DNA of 53,525 nucleotides from a virus (Duplodnaviria > Caudoviricetes): the IMG/VR virus record IMGVR_UViG_3300010047_000004, positions 1 to 53,525 of that record. One strand, given 5' to 3'. This document shows, one piece after another, positions 28,577-53,155 of this stretch. How positions within the stretch are numbered: the first letter of the stretch is position 1; every line of letters begins with the position of its first letter. Below the pieces are notes generated by a model. The model made no database searches, had not been told where the DNA came from, and saw only the letters and a list, made by a program, of their open reading frames with translations. Both the position numbers and the translations under genes were made by a program.

Positions 28577-28760
28577 TCCCGGCGAGCGGGCGACGGCGCT
28601 TATCTGCGACCGCTGCAAAGAGAAGCTGGGCGCGAAGTATCTCCTGGGCCGATGGCTCTGCGCCGACTGCCGTGAGGTCGAGATGACCGACCTGATTTTA
28701 GAAGTCGCCAAGCCATTACCGTTGAGGCGTCCAGTGGCGGCGAGCAAGGGGAAGCGCTAA
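28569..28760 (+). CDS. Small zinc-finger protein
   Basis: CDRC...CADC; GTG start after GGAGG. Confidence 0.55.
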   Translation: MPDPGERATALICDRCKEKLGAKYLLGRWLCADCREVEMTDLILEVAKPLPLRRPVAASKGKR

Positions 28761-29728
28761 TGGACCCGGTGCGGCGCCGCCTGGGCATCGGCGGAAGCGA
28801 CATATCGGCGTTGATTGGCGAAGACCCGTTCAAGGACGAGAGCGACGTTTACGTCAGCAAGATTGCGGAGCCGGAGACGATTGCGGAGCCGGAGCCCCAG
28901 GTAGACGATGAGCGTGCCGAAGGGCATGTGTTTGAATCCGCGATCATCACGCTGGCGGCTCGCCGGTTCAACCTGACGGTCACGCCCAACGTCATGATCC
29001 AGCATCCCGAATGCGCCATCGCCCTGGGGACGGCTGACGCCCTGGGCGAGAAGGTCGGCGTGGAGGCCAAGCATGTTACACAGTTCAGTCCCCTGCACTT
29101 CGGGGAGTCGATTGAATCGGTCCCCAGTCACTTCGCGCTTCAGTGTTATTGGTACATGGGCGTGTCTGGGCGCGAATCTTGGATTCTGGCTGTCCATGAT
29201 CGCGGCACTATGCGCTATTACGAGTTCCGCGCAGACCCGGAGCTATTCGCCGTACTGCGGAGAATCGCGGTTCGGTGGTGGGATATGCACATTGTCGGCG
29301 GCGTGCCGGTGGAGCTTACCTCCAGCGACCTGTCGCGGCGCTGGCTTCAGCGGACTTATCCGCAGCATAAGAGGCCCGACCTGAGGTTTGCCCAGGAATC
29401 CGAACTGGAGTTATTGAACGAGTATCTATGGAACCGCATCAACGGCGCAGACCTGAAGCGGCGCAAGGAAGACCTGGAGGTGCAACTCCAGCAATTGATC
29501 GCCAATCGCGAAGGCATCAAATGGGTCGATGGTCAGGTGACCTGGAGAAAGATGAAGGATCGCAATATCACCGATTGGGAGTCGATGGCTCGCGGGCTCA
29601 TGAATCAGTTCATGCTGCCGACCGAACGCGAGGACCTGATCAAGTTCTACACGCGGACAAAGGAAGGTTCGCGGCGATTCTTATTGACGTCCAAATTTCT
29701 GAAAGAGAGAGAAGAGGAGGCTGCATAA
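28760..29728 (+). CDS. YqaJ-family (lambda Exo-like) recombination exonuclease
   Basis: RRLGIGGSDISALIG, GHVFESAI, TADAL...VEAK, QCYWYMGV motifs. Confidence 0.92.
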   Translation: MDPVRRRLGIGGSDISALIGEDPFKDESDVYVSKIAEPETIAEPEPQVDDERAEGHVFESAIITLAARRFNLTVTPNVMIQHPECAIALGTADALGEKVGVEAKHVTQFSPLHFGESIESVPSHFALQCYWYMGVSGRESWILAVHDRGTMRYYEFRADPELFAVLRRIAVRWWDMHIVGGVPVELTSSDLSRRWLQRTYPQHKRPDLRFAQESELELLNEYLWNRINGADLKRRKEDLEVQLQQLIANREGIKWVDGQVTWRKMKDRNITDWESMARGLMNQFMLPTEREDLIKFYTRTKEGSRRFLLTSKFLKEREEEAA

Positions 29729-33186: not shown

Positions 33187-33505
33187 GATTCGGAGTCTCC
33201 GCGAGATTCAGTTCGCGCACGATTTATACGCGGGACTCATTCTCGAGCCCAGCATCCCTATCGGCTCCGGCTCGATGTTAGCGATTCGCATTCATTCTTA
33301 TGCGGAGGTTCTGTGCTGGGTCCTGGGGCACACGCACAACCGCTCGTTCGCAGATCACATGGACAGAGTCATGCGCGAATTCAAGCGCAGGGGGATCGCC
33401 ATGATGGAGATCTCCGGCGAGCCGGTGACCTGGGAGGAGGGCCAAAGGATCTTGACTGAAGAGCCGGAGACGGCGAAGCCGGTGAAGGAGCCGCCGAAGG
33501 AATGA
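33173..33505 (+). CDS. Hypothetical protein
   Basis: GAGGGG RBS; VLCWVLGH motif. Confidence 0.65.
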   Translation: MEQPKIRSLREIQFAHDLYAGLILEPSIPIGSGSMLAIRIHSYAEVLCWVLGHTHNRSFADHMDRVMREFKRRGIAMMEISGEPVTWEEGQRILTEEPETAKPVKEPPKE

Positions 33506-34293
33506 AACAACCGGAGCAATTAGCTTTTGATTATGGCTCACTCGATAAGTCCACGCGAGAATTCGTTCAAGAACGGGCGGCGCAGATCCATCAGGCGGCG
33601 CGGGCGACAGCGGCGGGGATTGTGAAGATTGGCGGCTGGCTGACGGAAGTGAAGGAACGCCTGGGCCACGGGAAGTTTCTCGACTGGATCAAGCGGGAAT
33701 TCGCATGGAAGCAAGACACAGCCCGAAGCTTCATGCACGTTTTCGAGATGCTCAAAAACCGAAATTTTCGGGATTTGGAAATCGACGTTTCCGCCCTCTA
33801 CCTGATCGCCGCGCCACGCACGCCCGAACCCGTTCGCACCGAGGTTATCCATCGCCTTGAGATGGGCGAGCAGATCAAGCATTCGACCGTGAAGGTCGTG
33901 GTATCCGAGTACAACAAGACCGGCGATGCGCCCAAGGCCGTCGCCAAGTTATTCGACGCCGTGAGAGAGGCGCAACAGAAGGAGATCGTGCAGAGGCGGG
34001 AACTTCCCTCGCCAGCGGAAGCCCGCAAGACGGCCATAGCGACCGGCATGCACACGTTGGACCGGAACGGCGTGTACCAGCCGCCGATGACTGTCGAAGC
34101 CCAGGCTGACTATCGCGCCGACTGGAAGAGGGTCGGACCTATCGCGGACTTCATCCGCTGGGCGTCGTCATCGCCGGATCGCGCCCAGGCGCTAGTCGAA
34201 CTGGTGAAGGCTCGTCACTGGGCGCGGGACTTCAAGCCCGATGAACGGCGTCGTGCCGTGCGGCTACTCAAGGAATTTGACGAGGGCCTATGA
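33502..34293 (+). CDS. DUF3102-domain protein
   Basis: IVKIGGWLTEVKERLGHGKFLDWIKREFAWKQDTARSFM and SALYLIAAP. Confidence 0.85.
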   Translation: MKQPEQLAFDYGSLDKSTREFVQERAAQIHQAARATAAGIVKIGGWLTEVKERLGHGKFLDWIKREFAWKQDTARSFMHVFEMLKNRNFRDLEIDVSALYLIAAPRTPEPVRTEVIHRLEMGEQIKHSTVKVVVSEYNKTGDAPKAVAKLFDAVREAQQKEIVQRRELPSPAEARKTAIATGMHTLDRNGVYQPPMTVEAQADYRADWKRVGPIADFIRWASSSPDRAQALVELVKARHWARDFKPDERRRAVRLLKEFDEGL

Positions 34294-34823
34294 GACAGAA
34301 GAACGAGATCAAGGATCTTCAGACTGAAGCGCGGTCAAAATTTGAACGCTTCATTGCGTCTGAGTTAGTCGCCAAGCCGCAGGTTTCGACTAAGAACTTG
34401 GCGCGGGAATTCTACGACCAGGAGGAAGTCCTCCTGCGACGGATCGCAACCTATTCGATCATCCGCTTACTGGTCAAATGGGCGGATGACATTCTCAATA
34501 CGTCAACCACTCTTGAAATCTCGCGGAACGGAAAAACCCAGTTGCCATTACCGTTCGATCTCCAGGGTATCGACGTGCCGGGGGCGATCAGCTTCATTAC
34601 CGGCGCGAGCAAGGTGGAATGGGTAGCGAATTATAAAGCCCTGGGCTGGCAGATGGATTCGCATGCGTATCTTCTCCGCAAGCATGAAGAAGAGGTCATC
34701 GCCGCCCGCGCCGAATTCGACCGGCTGCATTATGCCGTCAAGCCATTGCAGGATGCAGATCCGGCGCTAACGCTGGAGGAAGCTCTTATCCAACTGACTG
34801 ACGACGACAAAGGAGCCGCATGA
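34290..34823 (+). CDS. Hypothetical protein
   Basis: ATGA overlap with neighbours. Confidence 0.7.
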   Translation: MRQKNEIKDLQTEARSKFERFIASELVAKPQVSTKNLAREFYDQEEVLLRRIATYSIIRLLVKWADDILNTSTTLEISRNGKTQLPLPFDLQGIDVPGAISFITGASKVEWVANYKALGWQMDSHAYLLRKHEEEVIAARAEFDRLHYAVKPLQDADPALTLEEALIQLTDDDKGAA

Positions 34824-35480: not shown

Positions 35481-35721
35481 TCCCTGGGCGGGAATGGAAT
35501 CCGTCCTGTCGCGAAGCGAGGTCGCGGCGATGCCGCCCCAGGTGGATTCCCGCTCGCCGCACGGCTTCATCGTGGTAGGCCTCCAGTGGCTGCGCCAGCA
35601 CCTGCGCGGGCGGCACTCCGACATACTGCGCATGCACCTGACCGGCGAGTCGGCTGACGGGCGCCGGTTCTGGTTCCGCGACCTTCCCGGCGTGCGCCAG
35701 GAACTGGGGATGGAGGAATGA
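35464..35721 (+). CDS. Hypothetical protein
   Basis: GGAGG RBS before ATG 35464. Confidence 0.55.
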   Translation: MADLPDPWAGMESVLSRSEVAAMPPQVDSRSPHGFIVVGLQWLRQHLRGRHSDILRMHLTGESADGRRFWFRDLPGVRQELGMEE

Positions 35722-35722
35722 C

Positions 35723-36811
35723 ATGACTCAGGAAACAACCCAAGAAGAGCAGGTTCTGATTCGCGGCAAGGTTTTCTTGTATCGCCAGAAGGCGCCATTT
35801 GTTCCGTCCGGCGCATCGGTGCATGGAGCATTGGAATACAACGGAGAGTCCGACGAGTTGCGCTGTCACGAGTGCGGCGGCTGGTATCGCATGCTCGCTA
35901 CTCATATCGTCAAAGCGCATCGCATCCGCGCCGCCGAGTATCGAAAAAGGCACGGCCTCAGAAGGCTATGCGCCCTGTGCGGGCCAAAGATGATCGCCAA
36001 GATAAGAGGCGGCGAGCGGAAGGAGCAATACTACCAGCGTCTCCGCGAGCGGGTCCGCTCGCCCGAGGGAAGGGCAAGCTTCGCGGCGCTGGCGCGAGAC
36101 TGGAGGGCGAGATATCCCAGAGTTCAGCCGCCGACGGATTTAGCCGAACGAAGAAATGAAACTGGACATTGCCATGCCCAACTCACACGACGGCTAAAAG
36201 AATTGGCGGCGATGTACGGCGGGCTTCCGACCAACGCAGAACTGTCGAAGCATGGCCTATCCCCGGAAAGTATCTGCGTGGTTTTCAATTTGCCGACCGT
36301 GACGGAGGTGATGAAGCTCCTTCAGTTGGCGCCGTCCCGAAATAGGGCTGGAGCCAGTGCATATACGCGAGAGGTACTGATCGAAATGCTGCGGGATTTT
36401 TGGGCGAAGTACGGTTGCCTCCCAATGCGCTCGCATATACGCATGGGTTTGGTCCCGAGAAGCGAGGCCTTTACCCGCGCCTTCGGCTCGATGGCAGAGG
36501 CCTACGAGGCGGCGGGATTATCGATAGCAGCCGCTCGCAGCCCACATGGGAAAGCCGCACGCCGGAAGGAATTAATCGGCAAGATACAGAAGTTTTATCA
36601 GGAGCATGGGGACGTGCCGAGGGCATCGCGCAAATATGGGCGTGGCGACGGCGAGTCATTGCCAGCCGGATTTCCATCAAGAGGGGCCATCGAAAGACTA
36701 TTCGGCTCGATGTATGCGGCTTATGAAGCCGCCGGTCTGCTTCGCGAGTTTCACGCCTTCAACCGCCGCGGCGTGGGTGCGCCATTTCACCCCAAGCCTA
36801 TAGACCTGTAA
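35723..36811 (+). CDS. ROS/MucR-like zinc finger fused to homing-endonuclease-associated repeats
   Basis: LRCHECGGWYRMLATHIVKAHRIRAAEYRKRHGL; repeats of type YTREVLIEMLRDF..KYG..P...FGSMAEAYEAAGL. Confidence 0.7.
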   Translation: MTQETTQEEQVLIRGKVFLYRQKAPFVPSGASVHGALEYNGESDELRCHECGGWYRMLATHIVKAHRIRAAEYRKRHGLRRLCALCGPKMIAKIRGGERKEQYYQRLRERVRSPEGRASFAALARDWRARYPRVQPPTDLAERRNETGHCHAQLTRRLKELAAMYGGLPTNAELSKHGLSPESICVVFNLPTVTEVMKLLQLAPSRNRAGASAYTREVLIEMLRDFWAKYGCLPMRSHIRMGLVPRSEAFTRAFGSMAEAYEAAGLSIAAARSPHGKAARRKELIGKIQKFYQEHGDVPRASRKYGRGDGESLPAGFPSRGAIERLFGSMYAAYEAAGLLREFHAFNRRGVGAPFHPKPIDL

Positions 36812-36835
36812 TAAAGTCCATGTTACATCTAGTTC

Positions 36836-37240
36836 ATGACCGAAACCATTCCGACTCCGACCCGGTTACCCTTCCGCGCCGGGTCCATTCAAATGCGGCA
36901 CGGTTCCTACTGGGCCGTCTACACCGCTTCCAAGGGGAATCAGGTGCAACTCAACACGCAGACCGCCGATTCTGTGGCTGCGCTCCGGTGGTGTGCGGAG
37001 CGGGTTGCGGCGGTTCTGCGCGTGAAGCTCTTCACCATCGAGACGATTGCTAATGGCGCGGGGACCGAAGGCTACGGCTACGGGCTCTCCGCAGCCCAGC
37101 GAGCCGAAATCCGCGCCGCCGTCGAAGCGGCTCAAGGTGACGCTCAAGCAGGGACCACCGCTGGAAGGACCGGGGCTGGTCGCAGCATTAAAGCGGCTGG
37201 TCGAAATCGGGCGAAGGCTGGAAAGGGAGGAACGCGCTAA
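36836..37240 (+). CDS. Small protein resembling an integrase arm-binding domain; candidate directionality factor
   Basis: AGSIQMRHGSYWAVYTASKGNQVQLNTQTAD..AA pattern; stop overlaps integrase ATG. Confidence 0.5.
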   Translation: MTETIPTPTRLPFRAGSIQMRHGSYWAVYTASKGNQVQLNTQTADSVAALRWCAERVAAVLRVKLFTIETIANGAGTEGYGYGLSAAQRAEIRAAVEAAQGDAQAGTTAGRTGAGRSIKAAGRNRAKAGKGGTR

Positions 37241-39009
37241 TGGCCGCAAGAGCATTTCCAAAACCCGCACGCCGGACAGCCATCGGGATTAAGCGCGTCA
37301 GCTTGCTGAAGCAGGTCGGCAACTACTCCTTCGACGGACAGGGCAACAAGTTCGCCCTCCTGGCCGACAAGTACGATTGCGACATTCCCGCCGAACTGAT
37401 GATCGAAGACAAGGGCTACAGCGGCACTGACTTTAACCGGCCTTCGATCCGGCTCGCCAAAAAACAGATCCGCGCTGGCGTGGCGAACGCCGTCGCATTC
37501 CCCTGGATAGACCGCTTCGCCCGCGACGTCGAAGGCGGGCTCGCAACCATCCGCGAGTTCCTTGAACTCAAGGCCCACGTCCTCCTGGGCGACCTGGGCT
37601 GGTATCAGGACAGCGGCTGGTTCAAGATGCAGATGAACATGTTCCTCACCGTCGCCCAGTATCAGCGGGACGACATTGCGGAGAAGTCCCGCTACGGCGT
37701 CATGGCAAAGCTGGCGAAGGGCCTCGCGCACTTCGGGGCGCCCTATGGCTGGCACATGGTCACCGGGCGCGAGATCGCGGCGCGGGCGCTGAACGCGGGC
37801 GAGGAAGTGCCGGTTGGCAGACCGCAGAACTTCTACGAACGGCGCGTGAACGAACTGGAAGTCGTGCAGCTAATCGGTGAACTCGCCCTGGCCGGAGGGC
37901 GCGACGGTTCTCTGCGCGGCATATGCCGGGAACTGGATTCGCGGGGAATCAAGACTCCCGGCGGCAAGCTGGGCTGGAATCCGATTACCGTTTCCGTCCT
38001 GGCGAATGACCTGACGTATTCGACCGGCGAATGGTGGTACGGCAAGCGCAAGTTCATCGAGCCCAAAAAAGTTCGCAACCCGGAAGCGGAGCGGCATAAG
38101 GTCCGCACCGTGGCGGTGTTCAAGCCCCGCGAGGAGTGGGCTGGCAAGATCGAAATGCCCGGTGGCGGCATCTGGACGCCGGACGAGCAAGCGGCCATCA
38201 TCGAGGGCCTGAAGCGCAATGGCGCCGCATCCACCGGCAAGCCCGCACGGCGAGCCGAAGACGGCGGTCAGGTGGCGATACTCAGCACGCTGGTTTCCTG
38301 CGGCGCCACCGTGATCTCCGGCGAGGGCATCGGTGAGGAGTGCAAAAAAGCGATGGCGCCCGCGCATGGAAGTTCGGTGAAGGACGACGGCACGCGGACG
38401 CTCTATTACCGCTGCACACACCGGCACAAGACCGAGGGACATTACGAGTGCGATTCCAAATCCGTTCGCGCCGACATTTTGCATCCCGGCGTTTGGAACG
38501 GCCTGAAGACCGCCGTCTGCGACAACCTGCAAGCCTTGGTCGCGGAGAAGTTCGGTGAGGTGGTCACGCCGGACGACGAGGCCGAACTGGCTCGCCTCCG
38601 TGAAGAGCGGAAGCGGAAGGAGCAGAAGCGGCGCGAGGCTATGAGAAAGGAGATCGAAGCCGACTCCGATGAGGACAAAGCGGAGTATGCTGGGCTGGTG
38701 GCGAAATATAAAACCGAACTCGCCCTCTTGGACCGGCGCATCGAAGCCGGAGCCGGAGAGGTTGAGCCGGAGCAATACGACCTCGCCACAATTCAGCGGC
38801 TAGCCCGCAAAGCTTTCCAAACGACCGACCCGGTGGAGCAACAAGCCATCCTGCTGGACTGGATTCCGGCTGGCGGCGTGCGCTATGCGAATGGCTGGGC
38901 GGAAATCACCATCCTGGTTCGCCTGAATGTTGTTAATTGTAAGCTGCCTGAACGTGCGATTTACAATAAGCAACTCCAGGTAACGACCAGGGTACGGATC
39001 GCGGCGTGA
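37240..39009 (+). CDS. Large serine recombinase (integrase)
   Basis: Catalytic RVS...Q, DKGYSG..FNRP, IDRFARD, APYGW, recombinase domain, Zn ribbon (LVSCG...C...YYRC...C), coiled coil. Confidence 0.95.
   Translation: MAARAFPKPARRTAIGIKRVSLLKQVGNYSFDGQGNKFALLADKYDCDIPAELMIEDKGYSGTDFNRPSIRLAKKQIRAGVANAVAFPWIDRFARDVEGGLATIREFLELKAHVLLGDLGWYQDSGWFKMQMNMFLTVAQYQRDDIAEKSRYGVMAKLAKGLAHFGAPYGWHMVTGREIAARALNAGEEVPVGRPQNFYERRVNELEVVQLIGELALAGGRDGSLRGICRELDSRGIKTPGGKLGWNPITVSVLANDLTYSTGEWWYGKRKFIEPKKVRNPEAERHKVRTVAVFKPREEWAGKIEMPGGGIWTPDEQAAIIEGLKRNGAASTGKPARRAEDGGQVAILSTLVSCGATVISGEGIGEECKKAMAPAHGSSVKDDGTRTLYYRCTHRHKTEGHYECDSKSVRADILHPGVWNGLKTAVCDNLQALVAEKFGEVVTPDDEAELARLREERKRKEQKRREAMRKEIEADSDEDKAEYAGLVAKYKTELALLDRRIEAGAGEVEPEQYDLATIQRLARKAFQTTDPVEQQAILLDWIPAGGVRYANGWAEITILVRLNVVNCKLPERAIYNKQLQVTTRVRIAA
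38929..38974. other. Candidate attP: 46-bp imperfect inverted repeat with central AA
   Basis: GTTGTTAATTGTAA...TTACAATAAGCAAC arms; AT-rich island in the integrase 3' end. Confidence 0.55.
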
Positions 39010-41541: not shown

Positions 41542-41645
41542 CTACCTGCTGAATCCCACCTGAACGGCCCGTCATAACCGCTCAGGTTTAGAGCGCCGCC
41601 CAATATTTTTGGGAGACACCGAACGGCGCCCATAGGAGACGTCCT

Positions 41646-47917: not shown

Positions 47918-47948
47918 GGGCCTCCTTCCGCGAGGCCCTCTTTTTTTT
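47918..47948 (+). terminator. Rho-independent terminator
   Basis: GGGCCTC-loop-GAGGCCC then T8. Confidence 0.85.
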
Positions 47949-48430: not shown

Positions 48431-48472
48431 AGCCCCGCGTTCCGCTCCGGCGGCGCGGGGCTTTTGCTTTTT
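48431..48472 (+). terminator. Rho-independent terminator
   Basis: AGCCCCGCG...CGCGGGGCT followed by TTTGCTTTTT. Confidence 0.8.
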
Positions 48473-48807
48473 ATGGGCTCATTTCTCCTGGGGGACTCCT
48501 AAATGAAAGTCCGGCCCAATTTTGCCCGGTCAAAAAATATAGGAATTTCCGCGCACGCCTAAAGTACCCCCCATTAACCGCCTGTTAACGGAACATGTTC
48601 GGCGCCCGATGTTCGATGTTCGATGCGCCGATAAGTGCTCCGCCGCGGCTGGGCGAACGTTACTAGAACCGTTACCGGACTAGGACATAGACCTAGGTCG
48701 CGAGTCACGCGAGACATACACCCATGCCCAGGTCGCATGCGGCGCCGCCTGAAGTCAGCCTAACTCGCGTTTGCGCCACCAAGTCAATAGCTGAGTGAGT
48801 GAGTCAC

Positions 48808-48837
48808 TTGACTACCTGGGGTACGAGTCACTAGGCT
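48808..48837 (+). promoter_or_regulatory. Putative promoter TTGACT-N18-TAGGCT for the ribozyme operon
   Basis: Same hexamer pair at 47962-47992 (N19); flanked by GAGTCAC repeats. Confidence 0.55.
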
Positions 48838-48847
48838 GGACTTACCT

Positions 48848-49081
48848 ATGACAAACAAACGCAGTCACTCAGAGAGCAGTATCACGGTACTTGATTACTT
48901 CGTCGGCGGCGCCCTGTGCTTCGCCGCGGCTGGCTTTTTGCTGCTGGCACTGTCAGCGACATTTAGCACGGTTGCTGCGGCGCCGACAGTCAGCACGGTC
49001 GGCGCATGGGCGGCAATCACTGGACTAGGCGGCGCAGTAATCGCGGCTGTCGTGATGCTGCTTGTTGATCTGAGCAATTAA
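48848..49081 (+). CDS. Small two-transmembrane protein
   Basis: Two hydrophobic segments; ATG 10 nt after the -10 box. Confidence 0.6.
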   Translation: MTNKRSHSESSITVLDYFVGGALCFAAAGFLLLALSATFSTVAAAPTVSTVGAWAAITGLGGAVIAAVVMLLVDLSN

Positions 49082-49092
49082 GGGAGACACAA

Positions 49093-49950
49093 ATGGCACG
49101 CAAACGAACACCGAAACCCGATCAGATACCGTCCTTTGACGGTCGCGACCTGACTACCCAGGATGTAATCCTGATATCAACGTCTGGCGGCAAAGACTCA
49201 CTCGTGACCATGCATGTTGTTCACGCCCTTGCCGTTGCCCAGGGCGTGACTCACAAGCTGCGAGCAGTGCATTGCGACCTGGGACGCATGGAGTGGCAAG
49301 GGACTCGCGAACTAGTGGAAAAACAGTGCGCCATGTACGGCATTCCTCTATACGTCGTCAGCCGTCCCCAGGGAGACTTGCTGGCACATGTGGCTGAACG
49401 CGGCAAGTGGTATAGCCCCAAACAGCGGTATTGCACAAGCGACCATAAGCGCGATCAAGTGACGAAGGTGATCACGCGCCTAGTGGCAGAGCACATTGAC
49501 ACCCTGGGCGCCCAGGGCGCCGTGCGCATCCTGAGCGTTATGGGGCTCAGGGCGCAAGAGTCCGATGCACGCAAAGCGAAACGACCGATAGCCCACAATA
49601 AACGCGCTAGCAACGGTCGGCGCATTGTGACTGATTGGTTGCCAATCCATCAGTGGACTGAAACTCAGGTATGGGACCTGATTCACTCCGAAAATCTCCC
49701 CTACCACTACGCATACGACCTGGGCATGCCCAGGTTAAGCTGCGTGTTCTGCATTTTTGCGCCGAAACCTGCGTTGTTGTTGGCTGGATATCATAATCGC
49801 GCACTGCTCAGTGAGTACGTGGCAACGGAGCAAGCGACAGGTCACACGTTCACAGGAAAGATAGCCCTGGTAAACATCGAAGCGACACTGAACGCGGGTT
49901 ATGTGCCGACCGCAAAGGTATCTAGTGCATCCTGGGCGCAATGCGCCTAA
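49093..49950 (+). CDS. PAPS reductase family (PP-loop, Fe-S) protein
   Basis: STSGGKDS, RYCTSDHK, GLRAQESDAR, LPIHQWTETQVW, AYDLGMPRLSCVFCI. Confidence 0.9.
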   Translation: MARKRTPKPDQIPSFDGRDLTTQDVILISTSGGKDSLVTMHVVHALAVAQGVTHKLRAVHCDLGRMEWQGTRELVEKQCAMYGIPLYVVSRPQGDLLAHVAERGKWYSPKQRYCTSDHKRDQVTKVITRLVAEHIDTLGAQGAVRILSVMGLRAQESDARKAKRPIAHNKRASNGRRIVTDWLPIHQWTETQVWDLIHSENLPYHYAYDLGMPRLSCVFCIFAPKPALLLAGYHNRALLSEYVATEQATGHTFTGKIALVNIEATLNAGYVPTAKVSSASWAQCA

Positions 49951-50001
49951 CTCCCCTGATGAGTCCCTGCAATGGGACGAAACGCCGTGAGGCGTAGGGA
50001 G
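49951..50001 (+). ncRNA. Type I hammerhead ribozyme 1
   Basis: CTCCC-CTGATGA-GTCCC(TGCAAT)GGGAC-GAAA-CGCC(GTGA)GGCG-TA-GGGAG; predicted cleavage after 49996. Confidence 0.93.
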
Positions 50002-50010
50002 ACACAAACG

Positions 50011-50265
50011 ATGACGAAAAAGACGAGAAGAGTACTTGAGGCAATCACGTATATAACCAAACTTCAGTTTTCATGCGATGTTATTTCGCGCCGTGACATT
50101 GAAGCGATGTTCGATTCGGTTGATTTCTCCGACCCAGTTACAGCCGTAGCAACCGTCGAATCGGACGCTGTCGCTTGCACTGTCCATTTCCACTTGCAGA
50201 CTGGCGGCGCCCAGTTCTCCAGGTCGCTTTATGCGGTAACGCGGATTGAATCGGAGGTTAACTAA
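50011..50265 (+). CDS. Hypothetical protein
   Basis: ATG 9 nt after the GGGAG of ribozyme 1. Confidence 0.7.
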   Translation: MTKKTRRVLEAITYITKLQFSCDVISRRDIEAMFDSVDFSDPVTAVATVESDAVACTVHFHLQTGGAQFSRSLYAVTRIESEVN

Positions 50266-50267
50266 CC

Positions 50268-50489
50268 ATGGAAAGACCATACATCGTAGGTTTCGACAAC
50301 AATACCGAAACGTCGTTTGACGTGACGGTTCACGGCGCCACATGTGACGGCGCCCAGGAATGGACTCGTGATTACTTCGGTCACGCTGACGGTTCACGCG
50401 ATTACCGCAATAGGAATCACGTTGAATACCTGTGGAGTGACTTTGATGGTAATCACACTTTCCGCGTTCACTTGGGAGGTTCACGCTAA
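50268..50489 (+). CDS. Hypothetical protein
   Basis: GGAGGT RBS. Confidence 0.7.
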   Translation: MERPYIVGFDNNTETSFDVTVHGATCDGAQEWTRDYFGHADGSRDYRNRNHVEYLWSDFDGNHTFRVHLGGSR

Positions 50490-50707
50490 TGAAATTTCGC
50501 GACTTGGCAATTGGCGCCACTTTTGAATTCGATCACTCTGACTTGCCGTGCGCGTGTTTTCAGATTGCGCATGGTCCATGGGTTAAGGTTTCCGCACGGA
50601 AGTATCAATGGCTTGCTGGCGGTTCCGAAATCAGAGTAGGCAGCATTAACGCGACCGTGCGCCCTGGGGATGATTGCGGCAAACGCTGGATTTTCAAACG
50701 GCGTTAA
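50489..50707 (+). CDS. Hypothetical protein
   Basis: GGAGGT RBS, TAATG overlap; begins MKFRDLAIGATFEF. Confidence 0.7.
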   Translation: MKFRDLAIGATFEFDHSDLPCACFQIAHGPWVKVSARKYQWLAGGSEIRVGSINATVRPGDDCGKRWIFKRR

Positions 50708-50763
50708 CTCCCCTGATGAGTCCCTGCAATGGGACGAAACGGCGCCCTGGGCGCCGTAGGGAG
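50708..50763 (+). ncRNA. Type I hammerhead ribozyme 2
   Basis: Same core; stem III CGGCGCC(CTG)GGCGCCG; predicted cleavage after 50758. Confidence 0.93.
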
Positions 50764-50772
50764 ACACCCACT

Positions 50773-51489
50773 ATGACGACGAATAAACGGAAACCAAACG
50801 GCTACAAACGGCTGCTACAGGATGACAATTACAAGACAGTCAAAGGCGAGTCCCTAGGCTGGCTGACTGCGATTATGTACTTGGCGCCAGCTATGTCCTC
50901 AGGCGTTCTTAACGTGTGCCTAGGCGCAACGGCATGGTGCATAGCGCTATGTCTCAACACGGCTGGCATGGGACGGTTCCGCAACGTGCAAGCGGCACGT
51001 GTTGCGAAAACAATGTTGCTCGCATCTAGCCGTGCGTTGTTTCTGGCATGCCTGAGGTATGACATAGGGATGTACGTGCGCCGTGCTGCTAAACGCGGCA
51101 TGCGGCTGGCTGTCAGGATTAACGGCACGAGTGACCTACCATGGCTGGCTAAAGAAATGGCGCGGTCATTTCCGACAGTCCAGTTTTACGACTATACGAA
51201 ACTGGCAAAGGCTGAACTGCGGCAATTGCCCAACTATCACATCACGTACTCGTATAGTGGCGAGAATTTATGCGAGTCCCTGCGAGTACTCGCACAGGGC
51301 GTCAATGTCGCTGTCGTGTTCCATGTGCGCAAGGGCATGCCGTTACCTGAGACTTGGCATGGTTACCGTGTGATTGATGGCGACTTGCACGACTTGCGAT
51401 TCCTAGACCCGAAGGGCGTGGTAGTCGGTTTACGTGCAAAGGGACTCGCTATCAACGCGGACAGTCCCTTTATCGTGTTGGCGTCCTAA
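50773..51489 (+). CDS. GP88-family phage protein with three-Cys motif
   Basis: YLAPA..SG..NVC..AT..C...CLNTAG, AVRINGTSD, QFYDYTK, NYHITYS, NVAVVF, VIDGD.HDLRFLDP.GVVVGL.AKG. Confidence 0.8.
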   Translation: MTTNKRKPNGYKRLLQDDNYKTVKGESLGWLTAIMYLAPAMSSGVLNVCLGATAWCIALCLNTAGMGRFRNVQAARVAKTMLLASSRALFLACLRYDIGMYVRRAAKRGMRLAVRINGTSDLPWLAKEMARSFPTVQFYDYTKLAKAELRQLPNYHITYSYSGENLCESLRVLAQGVNVAVVFHVRKGMPLPETWHGYRVIDGDLHDLRFLDPKGVVVGLRAKGLAINADSPFIVLAS

Positions 51490-51545
51490 CTCCCCTGATG
51501 AGTCCCTGGGACGGGACGAAACGGCGCCCTGGGCGCCGTAGGGAG
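51490..51545 (+). ncRNA. Type I hammerhead ribozyme 3
   Basis: Same core; loop II TGGGAC; predicted cleavage after 51540. Confidence 0.92.
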
Positions 51546-51554
51546 ACACAAACG

Positions 51555-51755
51555 ATGAGACTACGAGCAACCATCAAACGAACTGAAACCGATACGCATC
51601 GATTCATTCACTTTGTTTTTCCGAAGGGCGTGAATCCGTTTATGTACGAACACGTGCTGCGGCGCAACCTGGGCGCACGCCCTTATTCCGAAGCGTTCAG
51701 CATGAACGCTCAGGGAGAGTCATTGGTAATGTTCGGCGCACGCAAACGGCGTTAA
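51555..51755 (+). CDS. Hypothetical protein
   Basis: ATG 9 nt after the GGGAG of ribozyme 3; stop abuts ribozyme 4. Confidence 0.7.
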   Translation: MRLRATIKRTETDTHRFIHFVFPKGVNPFMYEHVLRRNLGARPYSEAFSMNAQGESLVMFGARKRR

Positions 51756-51810
51756 CTCCCCTGATGAGTCCCTGGGACGGGACGAAACGGCGCCACGGCG
51801 CCGTAGGGAG
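51756..51810 (+). ncRNA. Type I hammerhead ribozyme 4
   Basis: Same core; stem III CGGCGC(CACG)GCGCCG; predicted cleavage after 51805. Confidence 0.92.
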
Positions 51811-51815
51811 ACACT

Positions 51816-52046
51816 ATGACGATTAACAAACATGTTCAGTTGATCAACAACGATACTCGCCTATCGTTGTTCTTTTTTCGGTTCCATTTGCGCAATGGGC
51901 ACACGCGCCTATTCTGCTTTCATTGCGAGTCCCTAGTGTCGGCATGGTCAAGCTTGATCAAGCGTGTTGCTGCCCAGGGATACGACCTGTCAGCAATTGC
52001 GGCTGTCGAATTGGAATCGATGGAATCACCCAGGGAGAACAACTAG
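51816..52046 (+). CDS. Hypothetical protein
   Basis: ATG 5 nt after the GGGAG of ribozyme 4. Confidence 0.7.
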   Translation: MTINKHVQLINNDTRLSLFFFRFHLRNGHTRLFCFHCESLVSAWSSLIKRVAAQGYDLSAIAAVELESMESPRENN

Positions 52047-52047
52047 C

Positions 52048-52353
52048 ATGCGTGCCGCGGCGGTCCACTTTTTTCTGTCGCTTGCTCTGCGACTTTCACG
52101 GCACGCTGACGTGCGTGCGTGCCTAACTATGACTCTTGCAGACGTAGAAGACTGGCATAACGGCGCCGTGCCGCCGACCGCTGATACGCCCTGGTACGGC
52201 ACGCACTGTCCTAGTCCCGTGCCGTGCTGCAATCCTCGCGATCTAGACCTACGTGCCGTTTGCCCAGGGTGCGCCGATACTGTGCCGTACTCTGATGTCG
52301 CCCAGGGCGCCGTGTTCTGTGAACGTTGCGCCCTGGTATCACTCGTGCCGTAA
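52048..52353 (+). CDS. Cys-rich hypothetical protein
   Basis: AGGGAG RBS; CPGC...CERC; start uncertain. Confidence 0.5.
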   Translation: MRAAAVHFFLSLALRLSRHADVRACLTMTLADVEDWHNGAVPPTADTPWYGTHCPSPVPCCNPRDLDLRAVCPGCADTVPYSDVAQGAVFCERCALVSLVP

Positions 52354-52394: not shown

Positions 52395-53155
52395 GGCGCC
52401 CAGGTCGCAAGACTTAGGGCGCCCTTAGTGTTTTAGGGCGTGCCCAGGATGCGCCCAGGGGAGTCGGCAGCATGCCCAGGGCGCCGACCGTCCCAGGGCG
52501 CCGACAGCGTGTCCAGGATGCGCCGCCCAGGGGATGTATAAACGCTGAATAAAGCAGTGCTACATGTTGTAACAGTACCCCTGTAAGTTGTTGATAATCC
52601 CACAAGTGAACACATGGTTTCTGAGCGTTCCTGGGCGCATGGTTGCGTCAATTTTTTCCTGGGCTATCAGGGTATTACCTATAGGCGAAACTCAACCGAA
52701 ACTGAGCGAAACTCAGGCGAATTTATCCTCCTCCTATCCTGTGGAAAAACCTGCTAGAAACCTAGCAGAGATCAGGGCGTGCCGACAGCCGTTTGGATAA
52801 ATATTCAGTATCGTGAATAAATATCCATAGCCGTTTGGACAGGTCGCGACTCAGGGCGCCCAGGGGTATCGGACAGGGCGCCCAGGATGCGCCGACCGTC
52901 AGCCGTCCCAGGGCGTGCCCAGCATGCCCAGGATTACCGCGCACGTGCGCCCAGGGCGCCCAGGATGCGCCGCCCAGCATGCCGACAGCGTGCCGCATGG
53001 GCGCCGACAGCGTGCCCAGGATGCGCCCAGGGCGTGCCGACCGTCCCCAGGGCGTGCAATCCTATTTCAGACAGCCTAGTCTGATTCCAACATTAGTCCA
53101 GCTTATATAAGGCGTTCAGTTGAAAAAATTACATAGCGACCTGGGCGTGCCGACA
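52395..53155. repeat. Non-coding low-complexity region of GCGCCCAGG/GCCGACAG/GGGCGTGCC motifs
   Basis: Two dense blocks (about 52395-52535 and 52850-53060) of recurring short motifs. Confidence 0.75.

Follow-up and report, generated by a model that had tools for sequence, protein, structure and literature searches.

Predicted type I hammerhead ribozymes between stop codons and ribosome-binding sites in a phage accessory operon

The DNA analyzed here, referred to as the window, is the complete virus record IMGVR_UViG_3300010047_000004 of IMG/VR, with a length of 53,525 nt. It contains four near-identical copies of an element that, by their predicted layout, are type I hammerhead ribozymes in which stem I is the open helix. 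They are located between the genes of what is best explained as an accessory operon of about 3.5 kb (about 48840-52353). The reading that we favor, with moderate confidence, is that these intercistronic ribozymes cut the operon transcript co-transcriptionally into separate mRNAs that start at a ribosome-binding site and that the repeats serve as recombination joints as a side effect. Hammerhead-punctuated phage operons are already known as an arrangement, and this locus adds another one.

A scan with the core pattern CTGATGAG-N6..30-CGAAAC gave four matches in the window, all on the plus strand and all in intergenic gaps, as compared with 0.02 expected from shuffled sequences. The copies are designated HH1 (49951-50001), HH2 (50708-50763), HH3 (51490-51545), and HH4 (51756-51810), with predicted cuts after positions 49996, 50758, 51540, and 51805, respectively. 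HH1 has a short stem III (ACGCC-GUGA-GGCGU), and the other three have a long form (ACGGCGCC-loop-GGCGCCGU), with a CACG loop in HH4; both forms pair. The layout is the same in every copy. A TAA stop codon is followed by the 5′ strand of stem I (CUCCC), the CUGAUGA box, stem II (GUCCC-6 nt-GGGAC), and GAA, and then by the stem III hairpin, which starts with A and ends with U, the cleavage nucleotide A, the 3′ strand of stem I (GGGAG), a spacer of 5-9 nt, and an ATG. The predicted cut triplet is GUA. In all eight copies known from the window and from a related phage, designated G001, the Shine-Dalgarno sequence of the next gene, GGGAG, also forms the 3′ strand of stem I, a helix of 5 bp, and the TAA stop codon directly abuts the 5′ strand. 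The repeated modules, comprising stop codon, ribozyme, and leader, are 63-76 nt long and 87-97% identical. The sequence GGGAGAYMC is present at six sites in the window: the four ribozyme leaders, a further leader at 49082, and position 41611. The last of these, with GGGAGACAC, was judged to be unrelated to the ribozyme leaders.

The predicted cuts define three units. (i) Unit 1 (49997-50758, 762 nt) contains three open reading frames (ORFs) that encode 84, 73, and 72 aa. (ii) Unit 2 (50759-51540, 782 nt) has a single ORF of 238 aa that belongs to the GP88 family. (iii) Unit 3 (51541-51805, 265 nt) has a single ORF of 66 aa. A preliminary description of this DNA had given the same three units, each built as a Shine-Dalgarno sequence, one or more ORFs, a stop codon, and a ribozyme body, and they were reproduced from the sequence and the predicted cuts. 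It had also pointed to the identical ends, AAACGGCGTTAA, of units 1 and 3 in front of the ribozyme (50696-50707 and 51744-51755) and to a leader of the ribozyme type, GGGAGACACAAA, that precedes the PAPS-reductase gene at 49082-49093 on the plus strand and has no ribozyme body. Both features are present as described. The C that precedes the shared end is common to the two units as well, giving a tract of 13 nt, CAAACGGCGTTAA, at 50695-50707 and 51743-51755, and both copies are read in the frame K-R-R-stop. The ribozyme-less leader is positioned immediately after the TAA of the preceding 77-aa gene, overlaps the ATG of the PAPS-reductase gene, and is the same as the first 12 nt past the cut in HH1, HH3, and HH-A of G001.

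The nucleotides required for a hammerhead core are intact in all four copies from the window and all four from G001 (C3, U4, G5, A6, N7, G8, and A9; G12, A13, and A14; the A15.1-U16.1 pair; and A at H17), and the pairs adjacent to the core are canonical throughout. A canonical core with canonical adjacent pairs is the basis for acceptance given in the methods of Perreault 2011 (PMC3088659). The minimum free energy structure of each 51-56-nt element of the window is a three-way junction, with z values from -2.9 to -4.5 (-3.47, -4.46, -2.90, and -3.00 for HH1 to HH4), and the hammerhead remains the minimum free energy fold in a context of 121-126 nt for all four. The helix cells are paired in 98.1% of cases as compared with 42-52% with slid partners, and one pair of stem III is changed on both sides, from G-C to C-G. 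Model R1 scores HH1 to HH4 at 75.3, 83.3, 84.5, and 84.9 bits; it identifies exactly four copies in the window and four in the whole genome of G001, with no others at E <= 1. On the strength of this match to the consensus, we take the copies to be genuine ribozymes. A type III reading, which corresponds to the best Rfam alignment, was rejected; it would leave stem I without a hairpin and stem III with two mispairs, whereas the type I arrangement pairs perfectly. Two candidate additions to the fold were also discarded. A conserved upstream hairpin or an extension of stem I into the coding ends can be drawn for some window copies but is not conserved in the relative, and AAACGGCG, as an alternative partner of the 3′ strand of stem III, is found in two of the three window copies with a long stem but not in the one such copy of the relative. 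AAACGGCG is more likely to be a gene-conversion scar.

Each ribozyme takes up the entire interval from a TAA stop codon to the ribosome-binding site of the next gene. In the processing scheme that we favor, each would fold during transcription and cut after the A of GUA. The upstream message would retain the whole ribozyme as a structured 3′ end with a 2′,3′-cyclic phosphate, and the downstream message would begin with a 5′-OH at the first G of the Shine-Dalgarno sequence; the short stem I would then fall apart, leaving the Shine-Dalgarno sequence unpaired. The products would be an mRNA of about 1.16 kb, the three units in succession, and a tail. As separate mRNAs, they could have a stability and a translation that are uncoupled from those of their neighbors. 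As a by-product, the repeated modules would be substrates for homologous recombination, so that genes could be gained, lost, or swapped at the joints. Processing of polycistronic mRNA is a role that has been proposed in print (PMC3088659, PMC6765202), and the text of PMC3088659 reports three phage arrays that were cleaved in vitro at all sites. The recurrence of the module of stop codon, ribozyme, leader, Shine-Dalgarno sequence, and ATG in a second type I family is consistent with the same role.

Several observations weigh against this interpretation. The PAPS-reductase gene has the same leader, GGGAGACACAAA, without a ribozyme, and the 73-aa ORF is preceded by a ribozyme in G001 but not in the window; expression of a given gene therefore does not require cleavage. 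In G001, the hammerhead is the minimum free energy fold in the 121-126-nt context for only one of the four copies. Covariation is minimal, the observed score being reached in 35 of 500 shuffles. At the gathering threshold, Rfam gives no match for the window copies. The type III model Hammerhead_3 (RF00008) scores 28-32.5 bits against a gathering value of 48.5, in a forced alignment with the wrong topology, and the RAGATH-1 hammerhead (RF03152) scores HH4 at 20.7 bits against 56.3. Finally, no conserved tertiary contact between loop II and stem I, and no pseudoknot partner, was found in the flanks, and the ribozymes could consequently be slow at cellular Mg2+.

The order of elements in the operon is a 77-aa predicted membrane protein, the bare leader, PAPS reductase, HH1, the ORFs of 84, 73, and 72 aa, HH2, GP88, HH3, the 66-aa ORF, HH4, and two final ORFs of 76 and 101 aa, all on the plus strand. 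A promoter-like sequence, TTGACT-N18-TAGGCT, was read at 48808-48837, on the plus strand and 10 nt before the first ATG; a consensus scan did not list it. It has a counterpart in the same place in G001, TTGACT-N18-TAGGAT, and may be the operon promoter. Only 10 nt separate the end of this motif from the membrane-protein start codon, so that the first cistron could have almost no leader. Terminator-like hairpins with U-tracts are present upstream of the operon at 47918-47948 and 48444-48471, and a terminator scan gave no strong terminator within 48848-52353. The membrane-protein gene (48848-49081) belongs to no Pfam family and has a homologue in G001 that is directly before a ribozyme. The PAPS-reductase-family gene (49093-49950, 285 aa) matches PF01507 (E 1.2e-18) and phrog_424 (E 2.3e-31) and has no match in G001. 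Within unit 1, the 84-aa ORF (50011-50265) is of no known family and is missing from G001, the 73-aa ORF (50268-50489) is conserved there, and the 72-aa ORF (50489-50707) is conserved save for its last codons and ends in the tract CAAACGGCGTTAA. The GP88-family gene (50773-51489, 238 aa) matches PF17338 (E 5.7e-42) and phrog_1617 (E 9.6e-71); a search of solved structures at E up to 1 gave no relative. The 66-aa ORF of unit 3 (51555-51755) is an orphan that is missing from G001 and also ends in CAAACGGCGTTAA; a search of viral contigs for homologues gave one weak match, which reads as spurious. The 76-aa ORF (51816-52046) is conserved in G001, where it directly follows the last ribozyme (HH-D), and the 101-aa ORF (52048-52353) is the last gene of the operon. 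A reading frame is open through HH1, HH2, and HH3 (window 49972, 50674, and 51498) in frame with the downstream ORF, and in HH3 it takes in the ATG inside CUGAUGA. There is no such frame through HH4, which has a leader 4 nt shorter. The open frame is probably a side effect of the repeat. A further terminator-like hairpin is found at 51846-51881, inside the 76-aa ORF and 40 nt past the HH4 cut; its stem has 10 bp and its tail is U-rich. It is near-invariant in G001, with one change, in the loop, in surroundings that are about 81% identical, and together with HH4 it would delimit a short RNA of about 75 nt.

Homologues of GP88 are very common, with > 600 viral and > 580 metagenome stretches, and a set of 231 GP88 loci, including 80 viral ones, was retained. 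With our own descriptor, hammerhead candidates are present in 14 of the 231, three of which are regarded as dubious (L162 and L028/L132). Arrays around or beside GP88 comprise five type I copies in L045, four type II copies in L007, and five type II copies in L206, in addition to the array in L174. The type II arrays of L007 (4745-5770) and L206 (3908-6850) leave almost no free bases in the gaps between GP88 and small ORFs. Rfam at its gathering threshold reported no ribozyme in 19 viral GP88 loci that were scanned, L007 among them, and the type II calls are therefore those of our descriptor alone. No hammerheads were found near homologues of the PAPS reductase in 12 loci. A pattern derived from L045 identified the second type I family, with 46 ribozymes in 20 viral IMG/VR contigs, including L045/L264, in arrays of two to five copies. 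Its module consists of a stop codon, a stem I of 5-6 bp, the core, a stem II of 4-5 bp with a 6-nt loop, a hairpin stem III, an A-rich leader, GGAG, and ATG. It has six different stem I sequences, which are always complementary, and the Shine-Dalgarno sequence is 8-12 nt beyond stem I and unpaired. By a crude clustering of ORFs, GP88 has four different downstream neighbors across the ribozyme in four non-redundant arrays, and the same gene families appear in different orders; some neighbors change at junctions without a ribozyme too, for example in F15. In L266/L268, two stem I sequences are used in turn along the array (GCACUA, GCACAU, GCACUA, GCACAU), an alternation that would keep adjacent ribozymes from mispairing. 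The four copies of the window share one stem I because its 3′ strand is the Shine-Dalgarno sequence.

This double use of GGGAG bears on an alternative to processing that we regard as a tentative possibility, namely that stem I sequesters the Shine-Dalgarno sequence until the ribozyme cuts and that the ribozymes mainly regulate the downstream gene. Stem I and the CUGAUGA box would be covered by any ribosome that terminates at the adjoining TAA, so that upstream translation and cleavage would compete. The invariance of both features in the eight copies favors such control, as does the operation of its engineered counterpart, a hammerhead switch with the ribosome-binding site in stem I that is released only by cleavage (PMC3664830). 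A helix of 5 bp would, however, be a weak lock, and the same leader serves the PAPS-reductase gene without a ribozyme. Moreover, the Shine-Dalgarno sequence of the second family is outside stem I; because it is unpaired there, masking is not general to such arrays.

The comparison with G001 is relevant to another alternative, in which the modules are primarily a means of gene exchange. G001 is a complete phage of 54,786 nt with terminal repeats; it is about 80-90% identical to the window, with an alignment that covers 41.4 kb at 73-96% identity. In two pattern scans of viral contigs, it was the sole contig to carry the window ribozyme family, and a pattern scan of the metagenome collection gave no matches. 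Of the 231 GP88 loci, which were drawn from contigs of viruses, metagenomes, and genomes, L174 is the only one with this family. This contig is 100% identical to G001 over 5936 nt and hence is the same phage, which leaves one independent relative. The order in G001 is the membrane protein, HH-A, a 79-aa ORF, HH-B, the 73- and 72-aa ORFs, HH-C, GP88, HH-D, and the 76-aa ORF. G001 has no counterpart of unit 3 of the window (51524-51752), the two breakpoints being located within the repeat, and 1211 nt of the window (PAPS reductase, HH1, and the 84-aa ORF) correspond to 387 nt in G001 that contain HH-A, the unrelated 79-aa ORF, and HH-B; a homologue search with the 79-aa ORF found only itself. 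Three of the four ribozyme bodies of G001 are identical and all four share the loop II sequence UGGGAU. Loop II of the window is UGCAAU twice and UGGGAC twice, neither of which matches G001, and non-orthologous copies from the two genomes are up to 96-97% identical. The ribozyme copies look homogenized within each genome. The G001 orthologue of the 72-aa ORF does not have the 13-nt tract and ends in different codons at the same length; this agrees with gene conversion that extended from the ribozyme into the end of the coding sequence. The preliminary description had suggested that the identical ends of units 1 and 3 are a possible recombination scar that extends beyond the ribozyme.

These differences would be expected if the ribozyme-leader modules were mainly portable homology for the exchange of gene units by a RecE/YqaJ-type system or host RecA, in a role like that of conserved linkers in other cassette systems, with cleavage making the units independent in expression. 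We consider such a selected cassette system rather unlikely as the principal role. In its favor are the loss of unit 3 within the repeat, the different block between the membrane-protein gene and the 73-aa ORF, the homogenized copies, the tract shared by unrelated ORFs upstream of HH2 and HH4, the four downstream neighbors of GP88 in the second family, and the low GC content of the operon, which is an island of 0.51-0.57 (window 48800-52000) as compared with 0.60 for the genome and 0.60-0.65 upstream. On the other side, the comparison involves one independent relative, and size-changing breaks are not significantly enriched in the array. There are 10 breaks with a size change of > 200 nt between the window and G001 genome-wide and two of them are in the array, where about 0.65 would be expected for an operon that makes up about 6.5% of the genome (Poisson P about 0.14), and phage early regions are mosaic anyway. 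Neighbors also change at junctions without a ribozyme (F15), and the exact absence of a ribozyme body at 49081|49082 is not expected from recombination between repeats. No paralogues or other homes were found for the cargo ORFs, and there is no dedicated recombinase nearby. The proposal in the preliminary description that genes are shuffled as cassettes is partly supported, by one relative and a second ribozyme family; in the comparison that it had suggested, the relative has different cargo between conserved repeats. The phage system that it had invoked is found in part; a YqaJ/RecE-like exonuclease is encoded at 28760-29728, but no annealing protein was named by Pfam or PHROGs in the window. 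If the cassette interpretation held across more genomes, phages would have in these ribozyme modules a new type of conserved linker through which genes are exchanged.

Head-to-tail closure of the cut units into coding circles resistant to exonucleases, whether through host RtcB or through ribozyme cleavage running in reverse, is very improbable. The expected ends, a 5′-OH and a 2′,3′-cyclic phosphate, are of the kind joined by RtcB (PMC3458531), and a type I arrangement would leave the whole catalytic body on the cyclic-phosphate end, being the one topology that does so according to the discussion of PMC3088659. The identical stem I strands would let the two ends of any unit pair, and the earlier statement that joining them would rebuild a hammerhead is true by geometry. 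The metagenome-assembled genome (MAG) that holds the contig identical to G001 encodes an intact RtcB (571 bits), but RtcB is common (10 of 14 control genomes) and the assignment of a host by binning is weak. The ends, 265-782 nt apart, would be held by just 5 bp, and fold energies of the 4x4 chimeras show no preference for combinations of ends of the circle type and no unit-specific pairing of ends. A rebuilt active hammerhead would cut the circle again, and the stop codon in every unit precludes endless translation. For other phage arrays, the text of PMC3088659 states that circular or spliced products were sought and not detected. A wider proposal appears equally improbable. In this, any ribozyme body could be joined to any GGGAG leader with a 5′-OH, by the reverse reaction or by RtcB, to give circular or re-sorted translatable mRNAs, and the same modules would be DNA joints for cassette exchange among phages. 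Least probable of all is that the copies are inactive relics, or protein-binding sites or terminators that merely resemble hammerheads, since, despite Rfam scores below threshold and the lack of a detected tertiary contact, none of the eight copies has a core mutation in two genomes that have diverged by 10-25% elsewhere, no U-tract follows stem III, and the match to the consensus is far beyond chance.

The gene content of the window includes a lambda-type large terminase, a portal, an S49 protease, a decoration protein, and a major capsid protein, together with a replication-initiator-like protein, a DNA methyltransferase, and a large serine recombinase. The last, a serine integrase at 37240-39009, is 10 kb from the ribozyme array and is the sole recombinase found. 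With these head and terminase genes and the exonuclease, replication, and serine recombinase set, the window is a lambda-like temperate tailed phage, from soil. Its host is probably a member of the Acidobacteriota, L174 being a contig of a Blastocatellia MAG, which is a weak hint. A phage collection contained no close relative of the window; two records gave a 76-nt match. Apart from the operon, the window differs from G001 at 33501-34810, a 1.3-kb insertion with a DUF3102 protein, and at 35714-37132, where a gene is replaced by one with ROS/MucR and homing-endonuclease-associated repeat domains; conversely, G001 carries insertions of about 1.1 and 2.3 kb. Downstream of the operon, at 52400-53150, direct repeats based on CCCAGGGCGCC and GCGTGCCCAGGATGCGCC are densely spaced and form several families, each with three to five copies. 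Repeats of this kind are also present in G001 and may represent iterons, a packaging site, or a regulatory region.

The role of phage hammerhead arrays has been an open question since 2011, and the reviews PMC6155905 and PMC6765202 describe the role of bacterial and phage hammerheads as unresolved. The locus described here is a clean test bed, with four intact ribozymes in a complete 53.5-kb phage, each fused to a stop codon and a ribosome-binding site, a natural ribozyme-less control leader at the PAPS-reductase gene, and a close relative in which one unit is missing and another block is replaced. Processing, control of translation, cassette exchange, and circularization could each be tested with a few constructs.

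Other systems share some of these features. Retrozymes and viroid-like circular RNAs, as described in PMC7761336, PMC6155905, and PMC7229834, also have direct hammerhead repeats that bound units with ligatable ends. They are, however, non-coding eukaryotic or subviral elements that spread by reverse transcription or RNA replication and have been detected as circles, whereas the units of the window are protein-coding cistrons of a double-stranded DNA phage that are known from sequence, with two ORFs that have Pfam families; a scan of 52 ORFs gave neither a reverse transcriptase nor an RNA-dependent RNA polymerase family. Integron-type cassettes depend on a dedicated recombinase that acts on a repeat at the cassette end, but the repeat of the window is a ribozyme and contains no recombination site of the families tested. 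The engineered switches of PMC3664830 are synthetic and use an extended stem I of the Schistosoma ribozyme, whereas the helix of the window is natural and has 5 bp. No case of a natural Shine-Dalgarno sequence as a stem I strand, and no link between self-cleaving ribozymes and PAPS reductase, was found in the literature searched, which for the former did not extend to figures and supplements. As compared with the hammerheads of the Rfam clan CL00010 (RF00008), the catalytic core and three-helix junction are identical, but the open helix is stem I instead of stem III. RAGATH-1 (RF03152) is likewise of type I, its stem III being a hairpin and its stem I short, and HH4 aligns with it end to end; the hairpin that is conserved 5′ of stem I in RAGATH-1 is not conserved in the copies from the window and G001. 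The second type I family has the same order of elements in the module and the same neighbor, GP88, but differs in sequence, in its GUC cut site, in the covariation of stem I, and in the position of the Shine-Dalgarno sequence outside this helix. The closest resemblance among described systems is to the clustered hammerheads of Perreault 2011 (PMC3088659), in which several same-strand copies in a phage genome bound small, mostly unknown, and variable genes; the text reports that multiple prophage hammerheads flank single genes or short blocks whose identities are not constant. In the window, four copies in the same orientation bound blocks of three, one, and one ORFs, and the cargo varies both between the window and G001 and within the second family. 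The passages of PMC3088659 that were searched make no mention of ribosome-binding sites, although Dataset S1 and Figure 3 could contain such cases. The copies of the window differ from those arrays in having a stem I of 5 bp with the Shine-Dalgarno sequence as its 3′ strand and a 5′ strand that abuts the stop codon.

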